DNA of 64,000 nt from the NCBI GenBank assembly GCA_949300535.1, contig CASGEQ010000080.1, forward strand, positions 1 to 64,000, read 5' to 3'. Shown here piece after piece: positions 37,342 to 60,642 of this stretch. A program made the position numbers and the translations under genes. Under the pieces are notes generated by a model, which was not told the DNA's origin, ran no database searches, and saw nothing but the letters and a program-made list of their open reading frames with translations. The stretch comes from an uncultured Bacillota bacterium. Its GTDB lineage: Bacteria; Bacillota; Clostridia; Christensenellales; Borkfalkiaceae. How positions within the stretch are numbered: position 1 is the stretch's first letter; each line of letters starts with the position of its first letter.

Positions 37342-40300
37342 ATGCGTAAATCGATTTTGGCAACCATTATGGCGTTCACAATGACGCTGTGTTTTTGTGT
37401 CGGATGCGTGTCCCTTCCGAAAGAGAACGGGGACTCGCTCGGGCATGAGGAAGATCAGAATTCTCAACAGATACAGCTTCTCAAGAGCGACGCAAAGATC
37501 TCGCAGGACGATATGCTGTCCCGAATCAAGGCAAAGCGCCTTCTCGAGAACAACGGATACGGCGCCGAGGATGAGATCACCGCGATCATAAAGCTGGAAA
37601 AGGCTTCTCTTGCAGAGACCTATTCTGCCGAGGGGCTGGACCGCGTGTACGGTTCGCTTGCGGAGTATGCAAATTCTGCCGCCGGACGGGCTCAGGCGCG
37701 TCAGATCGAGGCTCGTCAGAACGAGCTTGTGAGAAGTTATCTTGCGGAAGGGCTCATCACGGGAGTGGAATACCATTATTCCACGATCGTGAATGCGGTC
37801 GCGGTTACGGCGAAATATGCGGATTTCTCTTCGCTCGGTGCGGCGGCTCACGTACAGGAGGCGTACCTTTCCGATACCTATAACCGTCCTCAGGCGGCAA
37901 CGGGCGGAACGGATGCGTCGGCGATTGTGAACGACGTCAACGTGTATGAAACGGGAATTTTCGATTCGAGCAACGTCCCTTATACGGGTGCGGGCACGGC
38001 GGTTGCGATTCTCGACTCGGGATTTGATTGCAGCCATTCGGTCTTCGCCAATCAGCCCAAGGGCGAACTGCTCATCACGCGCACGTCGATCGAAGAAAAG
38101 CTTTCCGATACGCGTGCGGCGGAATTTACCGACGGACTCGAACTCTCGGACGTATGGTACAGCGATAAAATTCCTTTTACATACGATTATGCGGATAAGG
38201 ACAACGACGTCTTTCCGTATGACAGCGAACACGGCACGCACGTCGCGGGCATCATCGGCGGGAAAGACGATGAGATCACGGGCGTTGCGGTAGACACGCA
38301 GCTCGTGCTCATGAAAGTGTTCCCCGATCTCGATGACGGTGCGGATACGGACGATATTCTCGCGGCGCTTGAGGACGCGGTTCTTCTGAACGTGGACGCG
38401 ATCAACATGTCGCTCGGTTCCTCCTGCGGTTTTGCGCGCGAGGAAGACGACGATCTGCTCAATACCGTCTATCAGTCGATCGACGACAGCGGTATCAGCC
38501 TGATCACTGCGGCAAGCAACAGCTACAATTCCGCATTCGGCGGCGAACAGGGCAATACCAACCTCGTTACCAATCCCGATTCCGGAACGGTCGGCTCTCC
38601 GTCCACTTATCCCGCCGCTCTTTCCGTGGCGTCCGTCAGCGGCGTAAAGAGCAAATATATCATTGCAAACGATTCTCAGGTGGTATTCTTCACCGAATCG
38701 AGCTCCCTTACGGGCGATGAGAACGATTTCTTCGGCGAATTGTACCAGCAGCAGAATCTCGATCCGACGAAGGAATATACCTTCGAATACATTACCATAC
38801 CCGGCTCCGGCGTGCGCGGAAGTTATCTTTCCCTGCCGCAGGGAGCGGTGGAAGGCAAGATCGCGTTGGTTCGCCGCGGCGATAATACCTTTGAAGAGAA
38901 GGCGCTGCTCGCCAAAAACTACGGCGCGATCGCCTGCATCATTTACAATAACGTCGACGGCGATATTTCGATGTCGATGGGTAAAACCGAACATATCCCC
39001 ACGGTCTCCGTTTCCCAAGATATCGGCATGAAACTCGCTTCCCAAAGCGAAGGGACTCTCACGTTCTCCTATGAGAACGCGGCGGGGCCTTTCATGTCCG
39101 ACTTCTCGAGCTGGGGACCTACTCCCGATCTCAAACTCAAACCCGAGATCACGGCGCACGGCGGCAATATCCGTTCGTCCGTTCCCGGCGGCGGATATGA
39201 CGAGCTCAGCGGAACCTCGATGGCTTCGCCCAATCTCTGCGGCATCGTCGTGCTGATCCGTCAGTATCTGCGCGATAAATTTCCCGATTTAAGCTGGAAA
39301 GAAATCAGCGTGATGACCAACCAGATGCTCATGTCCACGGCGGACATCGTGCTCAACGAGGAAGGGAATCCCTATTCGCCGCGCAAACAGGGCGCAGGAC
39401 TTGCAAACCTTTATAACGTTGTCACGACGAAGGCATACCTTACGGTAGACAATATCGACCGCAGCAAACTTGAGCTCGGCGACGATCCCACCCGCAAGGG
39501 CGAATATACCATGACGTTCAACGTCGTGAATATTTCTGCGGAATCCGTGAACTATCGGCTTTCCGTTGCGGGCATGACCGAAACCGTTTCTTCTTACGAT
39601 AACGACCGTATCGCAGAAATGGGGCAGATGCTCGGCGGAAGCAGCGATGTGAAGATTTCGGGCGACGGCATCTATTCGGGCGGCATTGTATCCGTCAGGC
39701 CGAACAGCTCGGCAAAGGTGACCGTTACCTATAAACTCTCCGAAGACGATAAAGAACTCATCGACAGCTTGTTCCCGTACGGCATGTATGTGGAAGGATT
39801 CGTCAAACTCGAGGCAACGGACGGAAGCGGTTCCGCCGCGGCAGACGAAGTCGATCTGAACATCCCGTTCCTCGCCTTTTACGGCGACTGGACGCAGGCG
39901 CCGCTCTTCGACAAAACGTATTACGAAGTGGAATCGGAGGCGCATGACGCTTCCATCGACGAGGAAGACAAGCTGAAGGCGGACTACTATGCGACGACGC
40001 CTTACGGTTCTTACTATTATAACTACATCATCCCGCTCGGGTCGTATCTTTACGATATCGATACGTCCATGTACGACGCGATTCCCGCGCAGGAAGACCA
40101 TATCGCGCTTTCCAATATTCTCGGAACGATCGATGGATTTTCCACCGTATATGCAGGTCTGTTGCGCAATGCAAAGACGATGACGTATACCATTACCGAC
40201 AAGCTGACGGGAGAGGAAATCTGGAGCTATATCGATTACAATGCCAATAAAGCGTATTCGCTCGGCGGTTCGCCCATCCCTTCGTTTGAACTGCTCAACG

Positions 40301-59700: not shown

Positions 59701-60642
59701 GAAGAAGGCGGCGTTGCCGTTTCGCATTACACGCTTGTCATTGACGTGGACGCCAAGACGTATACGCTTACGCCCGTCACCGCAGCCGTCATCTTTGAGA
59801 TGAACGGGCACGGCGAGGCGCCTGTGATCGAAGGAACGGTGTATCAGAATATCGCAATCGATCTTCCTGCGCCTGAAACGGTTTCCGGCTATCTCTTCCT
59901 CGGCTGGTCGCTTGAAGCGCTGAGCACGGATTATGTCACGAGCGTCACGCCTGCGGCTGCAGAGGTTACGCTGTATGCGCATTGGACGGAGGCATACACG
60001 CTCACGATTATCTATGGTGCGCACGGAGAGACTGCGGAGCATACGCAGACGATCCAGATCGCGCAGAACGAAGAGGTCGATCTTGCCGAGTATGAACCCG
60101 CGTACGATAACGGCTATTCCTTCGGCGCATGGTATGAAGGCAGCTCTGCGAGCGGTACGGCTCTCGAGTCCACCGTCATCACGATGGACGCCGACAAGAC
60201 CTTCTATGCAAGCTATGTAGAGGGTGCGGCTTTCGTTATCGAGTTGGCAGGACCGTCATCAAGCGACAGCACGTTCATGGAGCAGGCCGACGGTTCTTAT
60301 CAAACGCAGGTCGGCACTTCGCCTGTGAACAGTTACATTGCGATTCATGTGTACGCTACGGGAACGCTTACCTTCCTCTATCGCGCTGTCGATGAGACGG
60401 GCGACGGTTCTTCTTATAGTTCTTGCGCACTCAATTACGACAGATATAACGCAGATGGAGACAGAATGAATTACTACACAAAAATCGGGGATGCGACTTA
60501 TTCGAGCGAATCTCTGGAATCTGTCGCATGGTCAGAGGTGAGCATCTCTGTAACGGAAGGCGATACTGTGTATATTCGTTTCAATAAGGCGTGGGCAGGC
60601 GACAATGCCGCAGCGGCTGTGAAGGATTTCAGTTTATCCTGA
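53731..60642 (+). CDS. Giant lipoprotein (2303 aa) with 4 N-terminal tandem repeats of about 85 aa and several Listeria-Bacteroides-type repeats
   Basis: Lipobox FAVGCAG. The repeat H(T/S)(F/Y)..W.I...PT......G...R.C.......E.LP.L(T/S)D..FW occurs 4 times. YVFRGWY...LYAKW motifs. Confidence 0.55.
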   Translation: MKKRRLLLFAITSAAVCTFAVGCAGHEHTYGSWTITKAPTDTETGLATRSCVDGDETEELTLPVLTDTQFWTYDVTTEATHTSDGAAAYTNSQYTLTIPVVLPAEGHTFEGADWVIVEKPTTTVVGSAVQYCTAGDGGAGTPIELPVLTDTEFWEYSEISPATHIAEGKAEYTNEEYDLTVEVSIPVQAHTYDGQKWTIGTQPTTEATGTAYRECTENDGGRDELTLPVLSDGTFWDEVEQTTAATHTQPGETRYSNSTYGFQIYYEIPALPHTFGTWKIVTAPTMQAGGKAARHCTEDDGGYEEKDLPALSDTEFWTAGSPVEADYNHAGYTPYTNEEYGIEYRLETAPKLPAPYDGKTYYGVVFDASSEEDMNGVIRMETSWLTAHITINADGTGTGSAYPFNDDFKFSIDDYDAGTVSVMRDDAVLTGYVDVVTGIMVLPVRTDWDNVVVWVPADSLASGDAVASAWQIDLIHKAIAITYAPVGGDTQMNILIYDNTVYFNVGFADIDGAPIAADECYNAPSLYISQGAEVLFTLGYDGEKVVTLDGLQGSYSGMLGAEQTELVISGFGAVTAGELDGEYTEISDGVIGATIGGIYYEVTLNAEDNTFVASRPEVTITYEAGEYATVESEEVSAGMELTLPVPENATMLFRGWFYDTDCTQAVGTPFIPEADTTLYAKWIIKVTLNLYFDGPDGTATVVEAGAGDTLEAIMEDYSDRLAPTQTHYFDGWFIRSDFSGSSMDETVPLPSEPNEFTLYAKWNEFPAYVGSYAGKNTYGATSAFNTKTVSIDGYGNITGTVTGTVASFDEETGLITYLSGDTTNYMWYSNGVIVFADSSSNRKNPTIPSDIDTLVRSDAPDSSNVLYNAQIGYAPSGATSGSTRVVTYIAENGEQANVLVYNNRIYAGVVVTDGFGAPLTAQNLRESKTVVVRASADGNPILAVGASAGTVGSGSLVLLDNYYGVYTSEDSEIRLDGVGNVEYEGKTGTYTVAAEGSGYGFDVYLEDASEYYRLTLSGSSFTIVKPEATLILSSEHSEHENVVLNVTITFATLPEPEAEGYVFRGWYSSADFTGEAVTSVTADAEGESITLYAKWLTEVTVTTEFNYDNAPEAVVYDGIGAGETFEIEAPVQSGYRFLGWFTSATEGEEWVSGETEVGQSITIYAHWAVAEPYYHTYDVFEYTGNDEFGTTSGRHVDYSWGNTYFSIDADGNQSGHGISPFQNGAKIIDYVRNDEAGYATFRFETYTSGGEPGSYYSAYLQLSTGLIVMSLRPEGGVAAGDEWSAVMLLIPFETAAPSDAQPDSSYWADGMVRTITFTDAAGAERSVFVENGVVYFDVSFEDAAADGSIVPAEECFGKQTVYILQGDRVLTSYGYNGTTMIKADGLGGSYTAAEGEELVLNGYGMFTLGSKSGLYTVEEEGVLDAYVIVDGSRTEHYTFTLSASTYTLEVNTNNSEFGQNPNSSNTQFGFAYDEANGYYYSQNKGVESSEAKMYITAFMAGTVTFEYQVSTENSDRLYVVIGTGTTTSGADLQASGNSKDLADGAAPAADGWISYSIVLEQEESLWFIYKKDSSINTGADTVWIRNLEFEAFDMTIAGTYSCTDEEDIALDGRGGITRGSEEGVYERNENGTYDVYFRNDDGENVSHYTITLDVQAMTYTITPVTTTVIFEMNGHGEAPEVTAYTNCVISLPASVKADGFVFRGWFDNAAFEGSAVTSVEVGEEPVTVYAKWDEAVTLTIDYAQESLADPEPIAVAVNDVITLSDYAPETVYIDGKLFTGWKYTDGEAITTDTITITAAVSVTAVWEDHDPYAVALEPDGKPIDKSYVDYGFTWDSEGGYYQSANGGADSSVASMTVTAYAPGTVSLEWWISSESAKYDYIRIYLNSENTGVEGGGTSDTSWHEFTCEMNSGDVLWIMYRKDSSGDNGEDCLRVRGLSFAALDMSVVGDYTGTEGTVSLDGRGSITLATPEAVMSGTYNEVSDGTYDVFFEEGGVAVSHYTLVIDVDAKTYTLTPVTAAVIFEMNGHGEAPVIEGTVYQNIAIDLPAPETVSGYLFLGWSLEALSTDYVTSVTPAAAEVTLYAHWTEAYTLTIIYGAHGETAEHTQTIQIAQNEEVDLAEYEPAYDNGYSFGAWYEGSSASGTALESTVITMDADKTFYASYVEGAAFVIELAGPSSSDSTFMEQADGSYQTQVGTSPVNSYIAIHVYATGTLTFLYRAVDETGDGSSYSSCALNYDRYNADGDRMNYYTKIGDATYSSESLESVAWSEVSISVTEGDTVYIRFNKAWAGDNAAAAVKDFSLS

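Follow-up and report, generated by a model that had tools for sequence, protein, structure and literature searches.

A conserved 12-gene cluster of uncultured gut Firmicutes encoding a predicted surface subtilase, large lipoproteins and an Opp/Dpp-type ABC importer

Gene content, boundaries and conservation

The 64,000-nucleotide stretch of DNA analysed here (the window) carries on its + strand a cluster of 12 genes spanning 32.3 kb (positions 28304–60642; Table 1). Its distal two-thirds consist of five large ORFs, G1 to G5, which a preliminary description had presented as a unit of 5 genes and 23 kb. Their coordinates, sizes and gaps were as reported there, including the ATGA overlap of G1 and G2 at 45030, and the successive spacings from G1 to G5 are -4 (the overlap), 41, 38 and 78 nt. 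However, the co-directional run continues unbroken upstream of 37342 to 28304 through a small transmembrane (TM) ORF, OppF-, OppD-, OppC- and OppB-like genes, a substrate-binding protein (SBP) gene and a gene for a 405-aa lipoprotein (up405), and thus includes an Opp importer that had been missed.

The window proteins were compared by tblastn with 80 species-level loci, ortholog counts being given over 82 loci. The order OppD-OppF-small TM-G1-G2-G3-G4-G5 and its strand were kept in virtually all loci with sufficient contig, from 28% to 60% GC, and orthologs were found for G1 in 78/82, G3 in 81/82, G4 in 73/82 and G5 in 61/82 loci. The carriers, uncultured gut Firmicutes of about 80 species, all come from animal guts (MAGs from human, mouse, chicken, ruminant and rabbit). 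With the same order and strand across these species, and no scattering among relatives, the genes form one functional unit, as had been proposed for the five distal genes. No prior description of this cluster was found. A Candidatus Gallimonas MAG, placed by NCBI in Clostridia incertae sedis, is the closest match (83–88% protein identity), and by protein similarity the host organism is close to Ca. Gallimonas; the previously assumed placement in Oscillospirales was not borne out.

The 5' genes (up405-SBP-OppBCDF-small TM-G1) were confirmed in three distant relatives (L083, L084 and L085), each of which carries different, unrelated genes upstream of up405. Similarly, the genes 3' of G5 are unrelated and differ among L086, L087 and L088. 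The cluster limits given above were set because these flanking genes differ among relatives. A conserved small ORF occupies the OppF-G1 interval, leaving no free gap between transporter and protease, and the transporter adjoins the surface genes gap-free in each genome where the junction is visible. A GH43/CBM35 fragment lies immediately downstream of the cluster, and one relative has rhamnosidases upstream of it; carbohydrate-active neighbours are not kept among the relatives examined (L083–L085 upstream, L086–L088 downstream).

The best σ70-like promoter candidate sits about 150 nt 5' of up405, a second one lies upstream of the cluster, and the preceding + strand gene closes with a terminator-like hairpin. 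The strong terminator announced after G5 was read directly as GGCCAAGACG-gtga-CGTCTTGGCC at 60693–60716, followed by TTTTTCTTTT, and it also marks the conserved 3' boundary; the scanner did not report it, a miss probably due to possible pairing between the adjoining A-run and the T-run. Inside the block, where no terminator had been noted either, there were weak terminator-like matches at the level of shuffled sequence (28 vs 21.2 ± 5.3 and 21 vs 19.4 ± 4.6 in two scans). We infer co-transcription across 32 kb, the 12 genes probably forming a single long transcription unit.

Table 1. Genes and putative transcription signals of the cluster (positions in the window; domain limits in residues)
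Feature	Position	Strand	Description
Second promoter candidate	27908–27936		Upstream of cluster
Hairpin of preceding gene	27388–27419	+	Terminator-like
Best promoter candidate	28128–28156	+	σ70-like, TTGACT-17-TATAAT, 11/12 consensus match
up405	28304–29521	+	First cluster gene; 405-aa lipoprotein, lipobox ISAC; weak Flg_new pair
SBP	29735–32395	+	Oversized substrate-binding lipoprotein, 886 aa from ATG 29735; SBP_bac_5; lipobox FAGC
OppB-like permease	32438–33445	+	One of two permeases; Pfam matches in text
OppC-like permease	33455–34591	+	One of two permeases; Pfam matches in text
OppD-like ATPase	34608–35942	+	ABC_tran, oligo_HPY
OppF-like ATPase	about 35944–37134	+	ABC_tran, oligo_HPY
Small membrane protein	37157–37330	+	57 aa; hydrophobic C-terminal segment; fills OppF-G1 gap
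G1	37342–45033	+	Putative cell-envelope proteinase, 2563 aa from ATG (ORF opens at GTG 37318); signal peptide; S8 catalytic 216–686; PA insert 501–565; fn3_5 722–843; Big_2 1323–1377 (Pfam); BspA-type LRR_5 array ~1413–2303; C-terminal linker; Pro/Gly spacer; TM anchor 2524–2547; basic tail
G2	45030–47333	+	767-aa lipoprotein; Fn3-like 42–115; Big_2-like 120–198; two predicted LolA/LprG-like half-barrels ~205–395 and ~412–610; C-terminal alpha/beta domain 640–762
G3	47375–49765	+	796-aa lipoprotein; ancient G2 paralog without the first Fn3-like domain
G4	49804–53652	+	1282-aa lipoprotein; Big_3-type Ig repeats ~40–650; C-terminal ~680 aa without family
G5	53731–60642	+	2303-aa lipoprotein; four ~83-aa N-terminal repeats (18–363); predicted beta-barrel module A x3 (354–605, 784–1017, 1172–1442); four Flg_new/InlB B-repeat pairs (608–769, 1019–1174, 1657–1807, 2009–2166); variable C-terminal part
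Intrinsic terminator	60693–60725	+	10-bp G+C-rich stem, GTGA loop, T-tract

The transporter and the surface proteins

Judged by its SBP_bac_5, OppC_N and oligo_HPY domains, the transporter is an Opp/Dpp-type ABC importer, an assignment that constitutes the strongest functional clue in the cluster. The SBP matches Pfam SBP_bac_5 (E 5e-27), and its full-length homologs make up more than 120 clusters at 57–90% identity. Its best NCBIfam match, Opp4A, scores far under the cut-off (68.9 vs 650 bits), and it aligns to a PDB SBP structure in three pieces that leave residues ~165–509, a ~345-aa insertion devoid of Pfam matches, unpaired. The two permeases, for which the BPD_transp_1, BPD_transp_1_N and OppC_N matches are given jointly, show 77–81% identity in L083–L085, and the two ATPases precede G1 in 71/82 loci. 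The small membrane protein, which could alternatively start at ATG 37049 (93 aa, overlapping the OppF end), is kept at the protein level in 61/82 loci and in L083–L085, where a gene of 78–87 aa is called at this position. Orthologs of up405 lie directly 5' of the SBP gene in the same three relatives (37–43% identity, E 1e-75 to 1e-90); its Flg_new match has an E of 0.0046, or 2e-4 with a G5-derived HMM.

The G1 start codon is preceded by AAGGAG at 8 nt. Residues 206–885 match the C5a peptidase structure 7edd (E 3.5e-68), as well as SpyCEP and cell-envelope proteinase A (the ScpA and SpyCEP matches span E 3.5e-68 to about 1e-60), and the Asp/His/Ser motifs seen in the structure alignment are present in 70/70 orthologs. 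These similarities place G1 among the cell-envelope proteinases, in the C5a-peptidase/lactocepin type; its catalytic motifs are intact and it is predicted to be active, and its score for the NCBIfam SGO_0316 subfamily is far under the cut-off (243 vs 1400 bits). The ~900-aa LRR array is self-similar, matches the LRR structures 4fs7 and 4gt6, and is accompanied by an NCBIfam match to the LRR adhesin HupY/LrrG, while residues ~2330–2500 appear helical in character. As had been noted, a lipobox-like N-terminus (CVGC, atypical) is combined with a 24-residue hydrophobic C-terminal segment followed by KKKK. The G1/G2 ATGA overlap recurs in at least 14/75 loci, is not universal, and gives way to a ~574-nt gap in one low-GC relative.

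Lipobox-type signal peptides were recognised by regular expression on 7 cluster proteins and, together with the TM anchor of the protease, support the surface exposure proposed earlier. Among the distal lipoproteins the motifs are lipobox-like in G2 (FAAC), G3 (VAAC) and G5 (AVGC) and atypical in G4 (AAAC). G2–G5 share the acidic, Thr/Gly-rich composition previously remarked on (Thr 9–12%, Gly 7–10%, D+E 14–15%, K+R 4–5%). G3, a separate ortholog of which exists in 81/82 loci, is an anciently diverged paralog of G2, as first suggested; the two align over 500 columns (G2 residues 104–525) at 24% identity (E 2e-14). The two make up a narrow family without a name, found in this gene context only. 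Predicted models, from which the G2 and G5 folds were assigned, suggest tandem LprG/LppX-like half-barrels in G2 and presumably also in G3, for which Pfam returned a weak Big_2 match alone; Pfam LppX_LprAFG does not match G2, whose identity to the mycobacterial proteins is just 10–13%.

G4 contains Ig-like repeats of ~75–85 aa (Pfam Big_3, E 8e-13, 3 stretches), and its C-terminal half of ~680 aa matched no family. In G5, small beta-barrels are predicted between the InlB B-repeats, and larger composite modules follow the N-terminal units. The tandem repeats described in G4 and G5 are therefore real but partly assignable, to Big_3 and Flg_new (InlB B-repeat). More generally, Pfam recovered the protease, LRR, Ig-like and Listeria-Bacteroides repeat domains that had been recognised by eye (Peptidase_S8, LRR_5, Big_2/Big_3 and Flg_new, in addition to PA and fn3_5 in G1), and much of the sequence still falls in domains unassigned by Pfam and NCBIfam.

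A possible role in protein utilisation, and its alternatives

We propose, with a probability of about 0.5, that the cluster is a Gram-positive protein-utilisation locus that couples surface protein digestion to peptide import. This proposal builds on the gene content, order and boundaries, the protease family and catalytic motifs, the Opp-type components and the predicted folds; from these we infer a peptide substrate, the roles of G2–G5 and any physical assembly, as well as the co-transcription considered above. The membrane-anchored subtilase G1, kept at a distance from the membrane by its long C-terminal linker and bearing the LRR array, would bind and cut extracellular proteins. The lipid-anchored up405 and G2–G5 would present ligand-cradling beta-barrel or half-barrel modules at the ends of Ig, Fn3 or B-repeat spacers, and would catch substrate or products, or regulate the protease. 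The oversized OppA-like lipoprotein would then deliver oligopeptides to the OppBCDF importer. Lactic acid bacteria feed on protein in this way, by means of a cell-envelope proteinase and Opp. Against such a nutritional role, the cargo of SBP_bac_5 transporters extends to nickel, haem, opines and oligosaccharides, and the low Opp4A score and insertion of the SBP weigh in the same direction; the classical ligands of LolA/LprG-like folds are lipids rather than peptides, and the LolA-like GerS (below) is an enzyme activator. The fact that the G1/G2 overlap is not shared by all loci also counts against the proposal.

Also against it, among solved structures G1 is nearest to ScpA (C5a peptidase) and SpyCEP, which are specific immune-evasion proteases rather than nutritional ones, and BspA-type LRRs are usually adhesins. 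A colonisation apparatus is possible, though on the unlikely side: the LRR array and the Ig-like/B-repeat lipoproteins would attach to mucosal proteins of the host or to partner microbes, G1 would cleave specific host effectors (complement, chemokines or immunoglobulins, for example), and Opp would be loosely coupled or sense signalling peptides. These relationships of G1 and its LRRs, the HupY/LrrG match, the InlB B-repeats and the exclusively animal-gut origin of the carriers agree with this possibility. However, it is difficult to account for the gap-free attachment of the transporter to the surface genes unless transport is involved, and the many host species in which the cluster is found do not fit the tendency of immune-evasion proteases toward host specificity.

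Compatible with protein utilisation, and altering the lipoprotein role only, is the unlikely case that G2/G3, perhaps along with the G5 barrels, serve the protease as dedicated partners and not as substrate binders, acting as a maturation factor or chaperone (cf. the lipoprotein PrtM for PrtP), an allosteric activator (cf. GerS for CwlD) or a self-protecting inhibitor (cf. the lipoprotein potempins and LupI, encoded with their target proteases). The recurrent G1/G2 overlap and the restriction of the G2/G3 family to this context favour such partners, and the fold matches of G5 module A include LupI and potempin E; yet these matches have low Z (6.6–7.6) on a generic fold, Pfam found no PPIase or PrsA-like domain, and the G1/G2 overlap is not general. 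A precedent exists in C. difficile, whose LolA-like lipoprotein GerS activates an enzyme (bioRxiv 10.1101/2025.01.13.632879).

It seems quite improbable that the cluster serves the scavenging or trafficking of hydrophobic ligands, in a scheme resembling mycobacterial LprG and the Rv1410 transporter: lipids, lipopeptides or further hydrophobic nutrients, freed from carrier proteins by the protease, would be bound by the G2/G3 half-barrels and G5 barrels and passed to or from the ABC transporter. A scaffold for polysaccharide capture, built like the cellulosome or S-layer systems with which the preliminary description compared the proteins and evoked by the very large, repetitive, acidic proteins and the carbohydrate-active genes near some copies, is essentially ruled out: dockerin, cohesin and SLH motifs, not seen at first inspection either, are absent by domain search from all 12 proteins, as are CBM and glycoside hydrolase domains, and those neighbours are not conserved.

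Comparison with known systems

By analogy, the logic of the cluster would be closest to that of the lactic-acid-bacterial cell-envelope proteinase with Opp, or to the Treponema dentilisin lipoprotein-protease complex. In lactic acid bacteria, surface proteolysis supplies peptide import, and the PrtP/PrtM/Opp systems likewise comprise an S8 protease in which a PA insert and Fn3-like domains are combined with a long spacer and an anchor to the cell, a lipoprotein gene adjoining the protease gene, and an Opp made of an SBP lipoprotein, two permeases and two oligo_HPY ATPases. Here, in contrast, protease and transporter lie in one conserved co-directional cluster with five extra lipoproteins, G1 is anchored by a TM helix instead of LPXTG, Big_2 and the LRR array replace the B domain of PrtP (lactocepin), no PrsA/PPIase-type maturase corresponds to PrtM, and the SBP is ~350 aa larger.

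The PrcB-PrcA-PrtP operon of Treponema denticola combines a surface S8 protease with auxiliary lipoproteins, and the dentilisin complex serves peptide nutrition, adhesion and complement evasion. It resembles the present cluster in placing such a protease co-directionally with lipoproteins of an otherwise unknown family, and differs in belonging to a diderm spirochaete, in its much smaller proteins and in having no known linked Opp or LRR array on the protease. ScpA and SpyCEP share the catalytic, PA and Fn3 arrangement of G1 residues 206–885, but they are encoded by virulence genes that stand alone, are anchored through LPXTG, act on specific host substrates and lack an LRR array.

The Bacteroidota Sus-like polysaccharide utilisation loci are alike in organisation, joining surface lipoproteins with Ig-like spacers and binding modules to a degradative enzyme and a dedicated importer. 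There is no homology, however; here import relies on an ABC system in place of SusC/TonB, the cell is monoderm, and protein is the presumed substrate. Finally, the mycobacterial lipoproteins LprG, LppX and LprF have a LolA-like fold, and LprG is encoded beside the Rv1410 transporter; compared with them, the G2 modules, at the low identity given above, stand in tandem within a 767-aa multidomain protein and accompany a different transporter class.

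Extent, conservation and hosts of the gene cluster

The five plus-strand ORFs that the preliminary description treated as one block (G1, an S8 protease, and G2 to G5, predicted lipoproteins) were recovered with exactly the coordinates and sizes reported there, and with the short spacing it had noted, namely a 4-nt ATGA overlap followed by gaps of 41, 38 and 78 nt. The terminator proposed after G5 is real, as read directly from the sequence, and no internal terminator was found within the block, where terminator-like matches are weak and not commoner than in shuffled sequence. 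The five genes do belong together; however, the unit of which they form part is larger, comprising 12 genes from 28304 to 60642 with the Opp importer genes upstream of G1.

Genes and signals of the 12-gene cluster (positions in the window)
Feature	Position	Strand	Remarks
Promoter-like site, strong	28128-28156		TTGACT-17-TATAAT
up405, lipoprotein ahead of SBP	28304-29521	+	405 aa; lipobox ISAC
SBP, SBP_bac_5 binding protein	ORF from 29654, likely start ATG 29735	+	lipobox FAGC
SBP insertion (residues ~165-509)	30225-31260	+	~345 aa
OppB	from 32438	+
OppC	from 33455	+
OppD	from 34608	+
OppF	to 37134	+
Small TM gene	37157-37330, or from ATG 37049	+	hydrophobic C-terminal segment
G1	37342-45033	+	2563 aa; CVGC
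G2	45030-47333	+	767 aa; lipobox FAAC
G3	47375-49765	+	796 aa; lipobox VAAC
G4	49804-53652	+	1282 aa; AAAC
G5	53731-60642	+	2303 aa; lipobox AVGC
G5 ~83-aa repeats (residues 18-363)	53782-54819	+	four tandem copies
Terminator after G5	60693-60716		GGCCAAGACG-gtga-CGTCTTGGCC, then T-tract

Neighbouring genes of the unit lie on one strand with gaps of at most 210 nt, the largest separating up405 from SBP, and the 207-nt "gap" between OppF and G1 is occupied by the small TM ORF, with 8 nt between its end and the AAGGAG of G1. Internal terminator-like sites occur at background level throughout the unit, with one strong terminator at its end, and the hairpins that follow up405 and SBP are not intrinsic terminators because they lack a T-tract on the plus strand. 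The cluster is probably co-transcribed as a single operon. An Rfam search of the whole window returned no family at gathering score; its one match, to a snoRNA in the 5' leader region, is at chance level (E 0.21), and there is thus no riboswitch or T-box clue to how the cluster is regulated. Conservation of the small TM gene extends to more than 60 genomes; on one contig it escaped the gene callers, and on the other they annotated an antisense ORF. Very long minus-strand ORFs (29789-34483, 47351-49693 and 57325-60042, among others; up to 1564 aa) that overlap the real genes were rejected as genes and attributed to the GC-rich coding strand, since the translations inspected are Arg-rich nonsense.

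A G2-family profile retrieved relatives in 121 species-representative genomes, of which 80 loci were fetched and compared with all window proteins by tblastn (counts are given out of 82 loci). The arrangement OppD-OppF-small TM-G1-G2-G3-G4-G5 was found in one order and on one strand wherever the contig reached, across about 80 species, so that the synteny check suggested earlier did not reveal scattered genes. G3 was present at 81 of the 82 loci, G1 at 78, G4 at 73, and G5 and the small TM gene at 61 each. Intergenic gaps in these relatives, estimated from HSPs, are crude with implausible extremes, and the count of ATGA overlaps is a lower bound only. The 5' part, up405-SBP-OppBCDF-small TM-G1, is present in three distant relatives, in which the upstream neighbours are unrelated (rhamnosidases, a Mur ligase, an M28 peptidase), and the genes 3' of G5 are likewise unrelated in three relatives. 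The conserved unit therefore coincides with the 12 genes, and we regard its reality as close to certain. In one low-GC "Bacilli" MAG (JBJEEE010000045.1), G1 and G2 lie about 574 nt apart with no 4-nt overlap, and G3, G4 and G5 measure 950, 1526 and 1581 aa, the first two exceeding and the last falling short of their counterparts in the window; the lipoproteins thus vary in module number between lineages.

All hosts of the cluster are uncultured animal-gut MAGs, with relatives recovered from the guts of humans, mice, chickens, ruminants and rabbits. GC content is 39-60% at loci labelled Clostridia or Christensenellaceae and 28-31% at those labelled Bacilli, Mollicutes or Acholeplasmatales, a spread which indicates long residence of the cluster in genomes of very different kinds; the taxon labels given by submitters may not be reliable. 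A Ca. Gallimonas MAG is the closest relative (83-88% identity), and the Oscillospirales host proposed earlier was dropped in view of the nearest relatives, which are Ca. Gallimonas MAGs and MAGs labelled Christensenellaceae. A published mSphere study of reduced-genome Christensenellales concerns UBA1242, a different family. Recent horizontal transfer was rejected, since each locus matches the GC of its host group and the window flanks, made up of housekeeping genes (asparagine and haem metabolism, TldD/PmbA, a corrinoid protein), contain no mobile-element genes.

Several further observations concern the surroundings of the cluster. On the plus strand, 16668-24684 holds an asparaginase gene and, after it, a nitrite/sulfite-reductase-like gene and the complete tetrapyrrole operon from hemA to hemL; in one relative (L088) an asparaginase gene is also found, some 2 kb downstream of the cluster, which may be coincidence. 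A 550-aa ORF at 24831-26483 (+) matches a family (ribosomal L15 type) in its C-terminal 70 residues only and is probably over-extended, the real gene being short. Just 3' of the cluster terminator, 60884-61750 (+) matches only the last third of GH43 (profile positions 188-288) and the start of CBM35, which suggests a fragmentary gene or a wrongly called start. Positions 1-2000 have 38% GC, against 48-62% in the remainder of the window, and may represent an AT-rich or foreign segment at its edge.

Domain architecture of the protease, lipoproteins and importer

G1 residues 206-885 correspond to a cell-envelope proteinase of the C5a-peptidase/SpyCEP/lactocepin type (E 3.5e-68). The Asp-His-Ser triad stands in subtilisin order, with ILDSGFD, HGTHVAG and SGTSMASP aligning to the C5a peptidase 7edd in an alignment that extends through residue 885, and all three motifs are found in the 70 of 70 orthologs that include the N-terminus. 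Peptidase_S8 (216-686) encloses a PA domain (501-565) and is followed by fn3_5 (722-843), a Big_2 domain, a BspA-type LRR_5 array of about 900 aa, a C-terminal linker that looks helical from its sequence, a Pro/Gly spacer and a TM anchor. An LPXTG sortase anchor is typical of streptococcal and lactococcal cell-envelope proteinases and of the NCBIfam family NF040553. No such anchor was found in G1, which ends in a 24-residue hydrophobic helix followed by KKKK and scores 243 with NF040553 against a cut-off of 1400. Judged by sequence, G1 is a member of the broad subtilase S8 cell-envelope proteinase/C5a-peptidase group, outside the NF040553 subfamily. On a second contig from the same species (L002; ENA ERZ16268088 scaffold_1332, 2319-10004), an indel near codon 2312 splits the equivalent of G1 into 2312 and 231 aa, so that the C-terminal linker and TM anchor are lost; this could reflect a strain variant releasing its protease or an assembly error.

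The surface-type composition attributed to the proteins of the five-gene block was confirmed, as they are acidic and rich in Thr and Gly. Lipoprotein signals, defined by an N-terminal signal peptide ending in [LVI][ASTVI][GAS]C and searched with a relaxed regex, were acceptable or near-canonical in up405, SBP, G2, G3 and G5, and atypical at position -3 in G4 and G1. Among the four lipoproteins for which signal peptides had been claimed, G2, G3 and G5 carry putative lipobox-type ones and G4 an atypical one; of the two ends described for G1, the C-terminal TM stood and the lipobox-like N-terminus is atypical.

G2 and G3 are paralogs as proposed, distant ones (24% identity, E 2e-14), and constitute a narrow family. 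An exhaustive profile search yielded about 60 G2-type clusters at 50% identity and then a G3-type tier, all other matches being confined to the Ig/Fn3 part. G2 matched nothing in Pfam, even at E ≤ 5, or in NCBIfam, and its sequence falls in none of the curated families of the LolA/LppX-LprAFG clan. Its AF2 model (pLDDT 88.6) contains Fn3-like and Big_2-like domains, two half-barrel modules and an alpha/beta domain. Structure comparison assigns the half-barrels of this model to the LolA/LppX-LprAFG fold, an unclosed antiparallel beta half-barrel with a helix plug, and Foldseek independently matched the model to LprG (TMt 0.50). G3 presumably belongs to the same fold superfamily by its paralogy with G2.

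Tandem internal repeats are present in both G4 and G5, as first described. G4 consists of Big_3 repeats followed by a half of about 680 aa without family assignment. G5, whose relatives carry the NCBI name "InlB B-repeat-containing protein", contains four repeats of about 83 aa, three copies of a module A and four Flg_new pairs, and its collinear conservation is limited to residues 1-1450; a PDB sequence search with residues 345-1010 returned nothing. The ~83-aa repeats, also without family assignment, share a conserved His/Cys/Trp pattern (H-x-Y-G-x-W-T...C...L-P-x-L-[ST]-D) and may form a small metal- or disulfide-stabilised domain. Pairwise BLAST among the cluster surface proteins, whole and as 160-aa fragments, gave no cross-protein match at E ≤ 1e-3, and HMMs of module A found nothing significant in G2, G3, G4, up405 or SBP; a single unassigned module common to the lipoproteins was therefore rejected as unsupported.

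All five components of an Opp/Dpp-type (PepT) importer score above Pfam cut-offs: the family-5 SBP, two BPD_transp_1 permeases, one with OppC_N, and two ATPases with C-terminal oligo_HPY. Opp4A is the best NCBIfam match of SBP, scoring 68.9 bits where the cut-off is 650. SBP is about 350 aa longer than usual and carries an insertion within the family-5 fold; more than 120 homolog clusters share the enlarged size. Pfam offers no match to the insertion, and permissive Pfam searches with it, G2, G3 and the C-terminal half of G4 gave nothing useful. Alignment at the ligand-contact residues of SBP was not reliable; the transported substrate would be oligopeptide.

Proposed function and comparison with known systems

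The best-supported reading is that the cluster is a protein-utilisation locus, to which we give a probability of about 0.5. The surface subtilase G1 would cut proteins, the lipid-anchored binders would hold substrate or products or else control the protease, and the Opp-type system would import the resulting peptides. The grounds for this reading are the protease family, the fact that protease and transporter are invariably linked, and the precedent of lactic acid bacteria, in which a cell-envelope proteinase is known to work together with Opp. We infer the peptide substrate, the co-transcription and the lipoprotein roles alike. It seems rather unlikely that, beyond this, the 12 proteins assemble physically into a dedicated surface machine, a monoderm Sus-like counterpart for proteins or lipoproteins. 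In such a machine, a stalked membrane-anchored protease and lipid-anchored LolA-like (G2, G3) and beta-barrel (G5) carriers would relay hydrophobic peptides or lipopeptides to the enlarged OppA, its 345-aa insertion serving as docking site, and the whole would be a core nutritional organ of many uncultured, partly genome-reduced gut Firmicutes; it would offer a handle for culturing them.

One alternative is adhesion and proteolysis directed at a host or partner, since the structures most closely related to G1 are those of immune-evasion enzymes and adhesins use modules of the LRR_5 and B-repeat kinds. Were the host-directed reading true, the protease would be a commensal factor of wide occurrence, and host proteins may be among its targets. 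The LprG-like modules could alternatively serve to scavenge hydrophobic ligands, or G2 and G3 could be partners of the protease (maturase, activator or inhibitor), for which GerS in C. difficile is a precedent. The resemblance to a cellulosome or S-layer system suggested in the preliminary description fails on domain content, and its remark that dockerin, cohesin and SLH motifs are absent was borne out, none being found in the 12 proteins at Pfam E ≤ 0.01 or in their otherwise unassigned regions at E ≤ 5.

Our literature search found no paper describing the cluster. Its types of parts (S8 cell-envelope proteinase, Opp importer, Ig, LRR and B-repeat domains) are already known; what appears undescribed is that they are joined in one conserved 12-gene unit, that the cluster has a G2/G3 family of its own with LolA-like modules, that SBP is enlarged, and how broadly the cluster is conserved. 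More than half of the coding capacity lies outside curated families, including G2/G3 and the large novel insertion of the OppA-like protein. Roughly a hundred species-level lineages of uncultured gut Firmicutes keep the cluster, of about 32 kb, intact, and it persists from 28% to 60% GC, which indicates strong selection; its part in the feeding or attachment of these organisms is probably a central one.

If protein utilisation is indeed its role, the cluster provides a testable model of protein foraging by poorly known gut commensals and a rationale for protein- or peptide-based culture media. Its likeness to the dentilisin-type protease-lipoprotein complex is organisational. As a nutritional locus, it would be a Gram-positive case of surface binders, enzyme and importer combined in one locus, a design so far best known from Bacteroidota.
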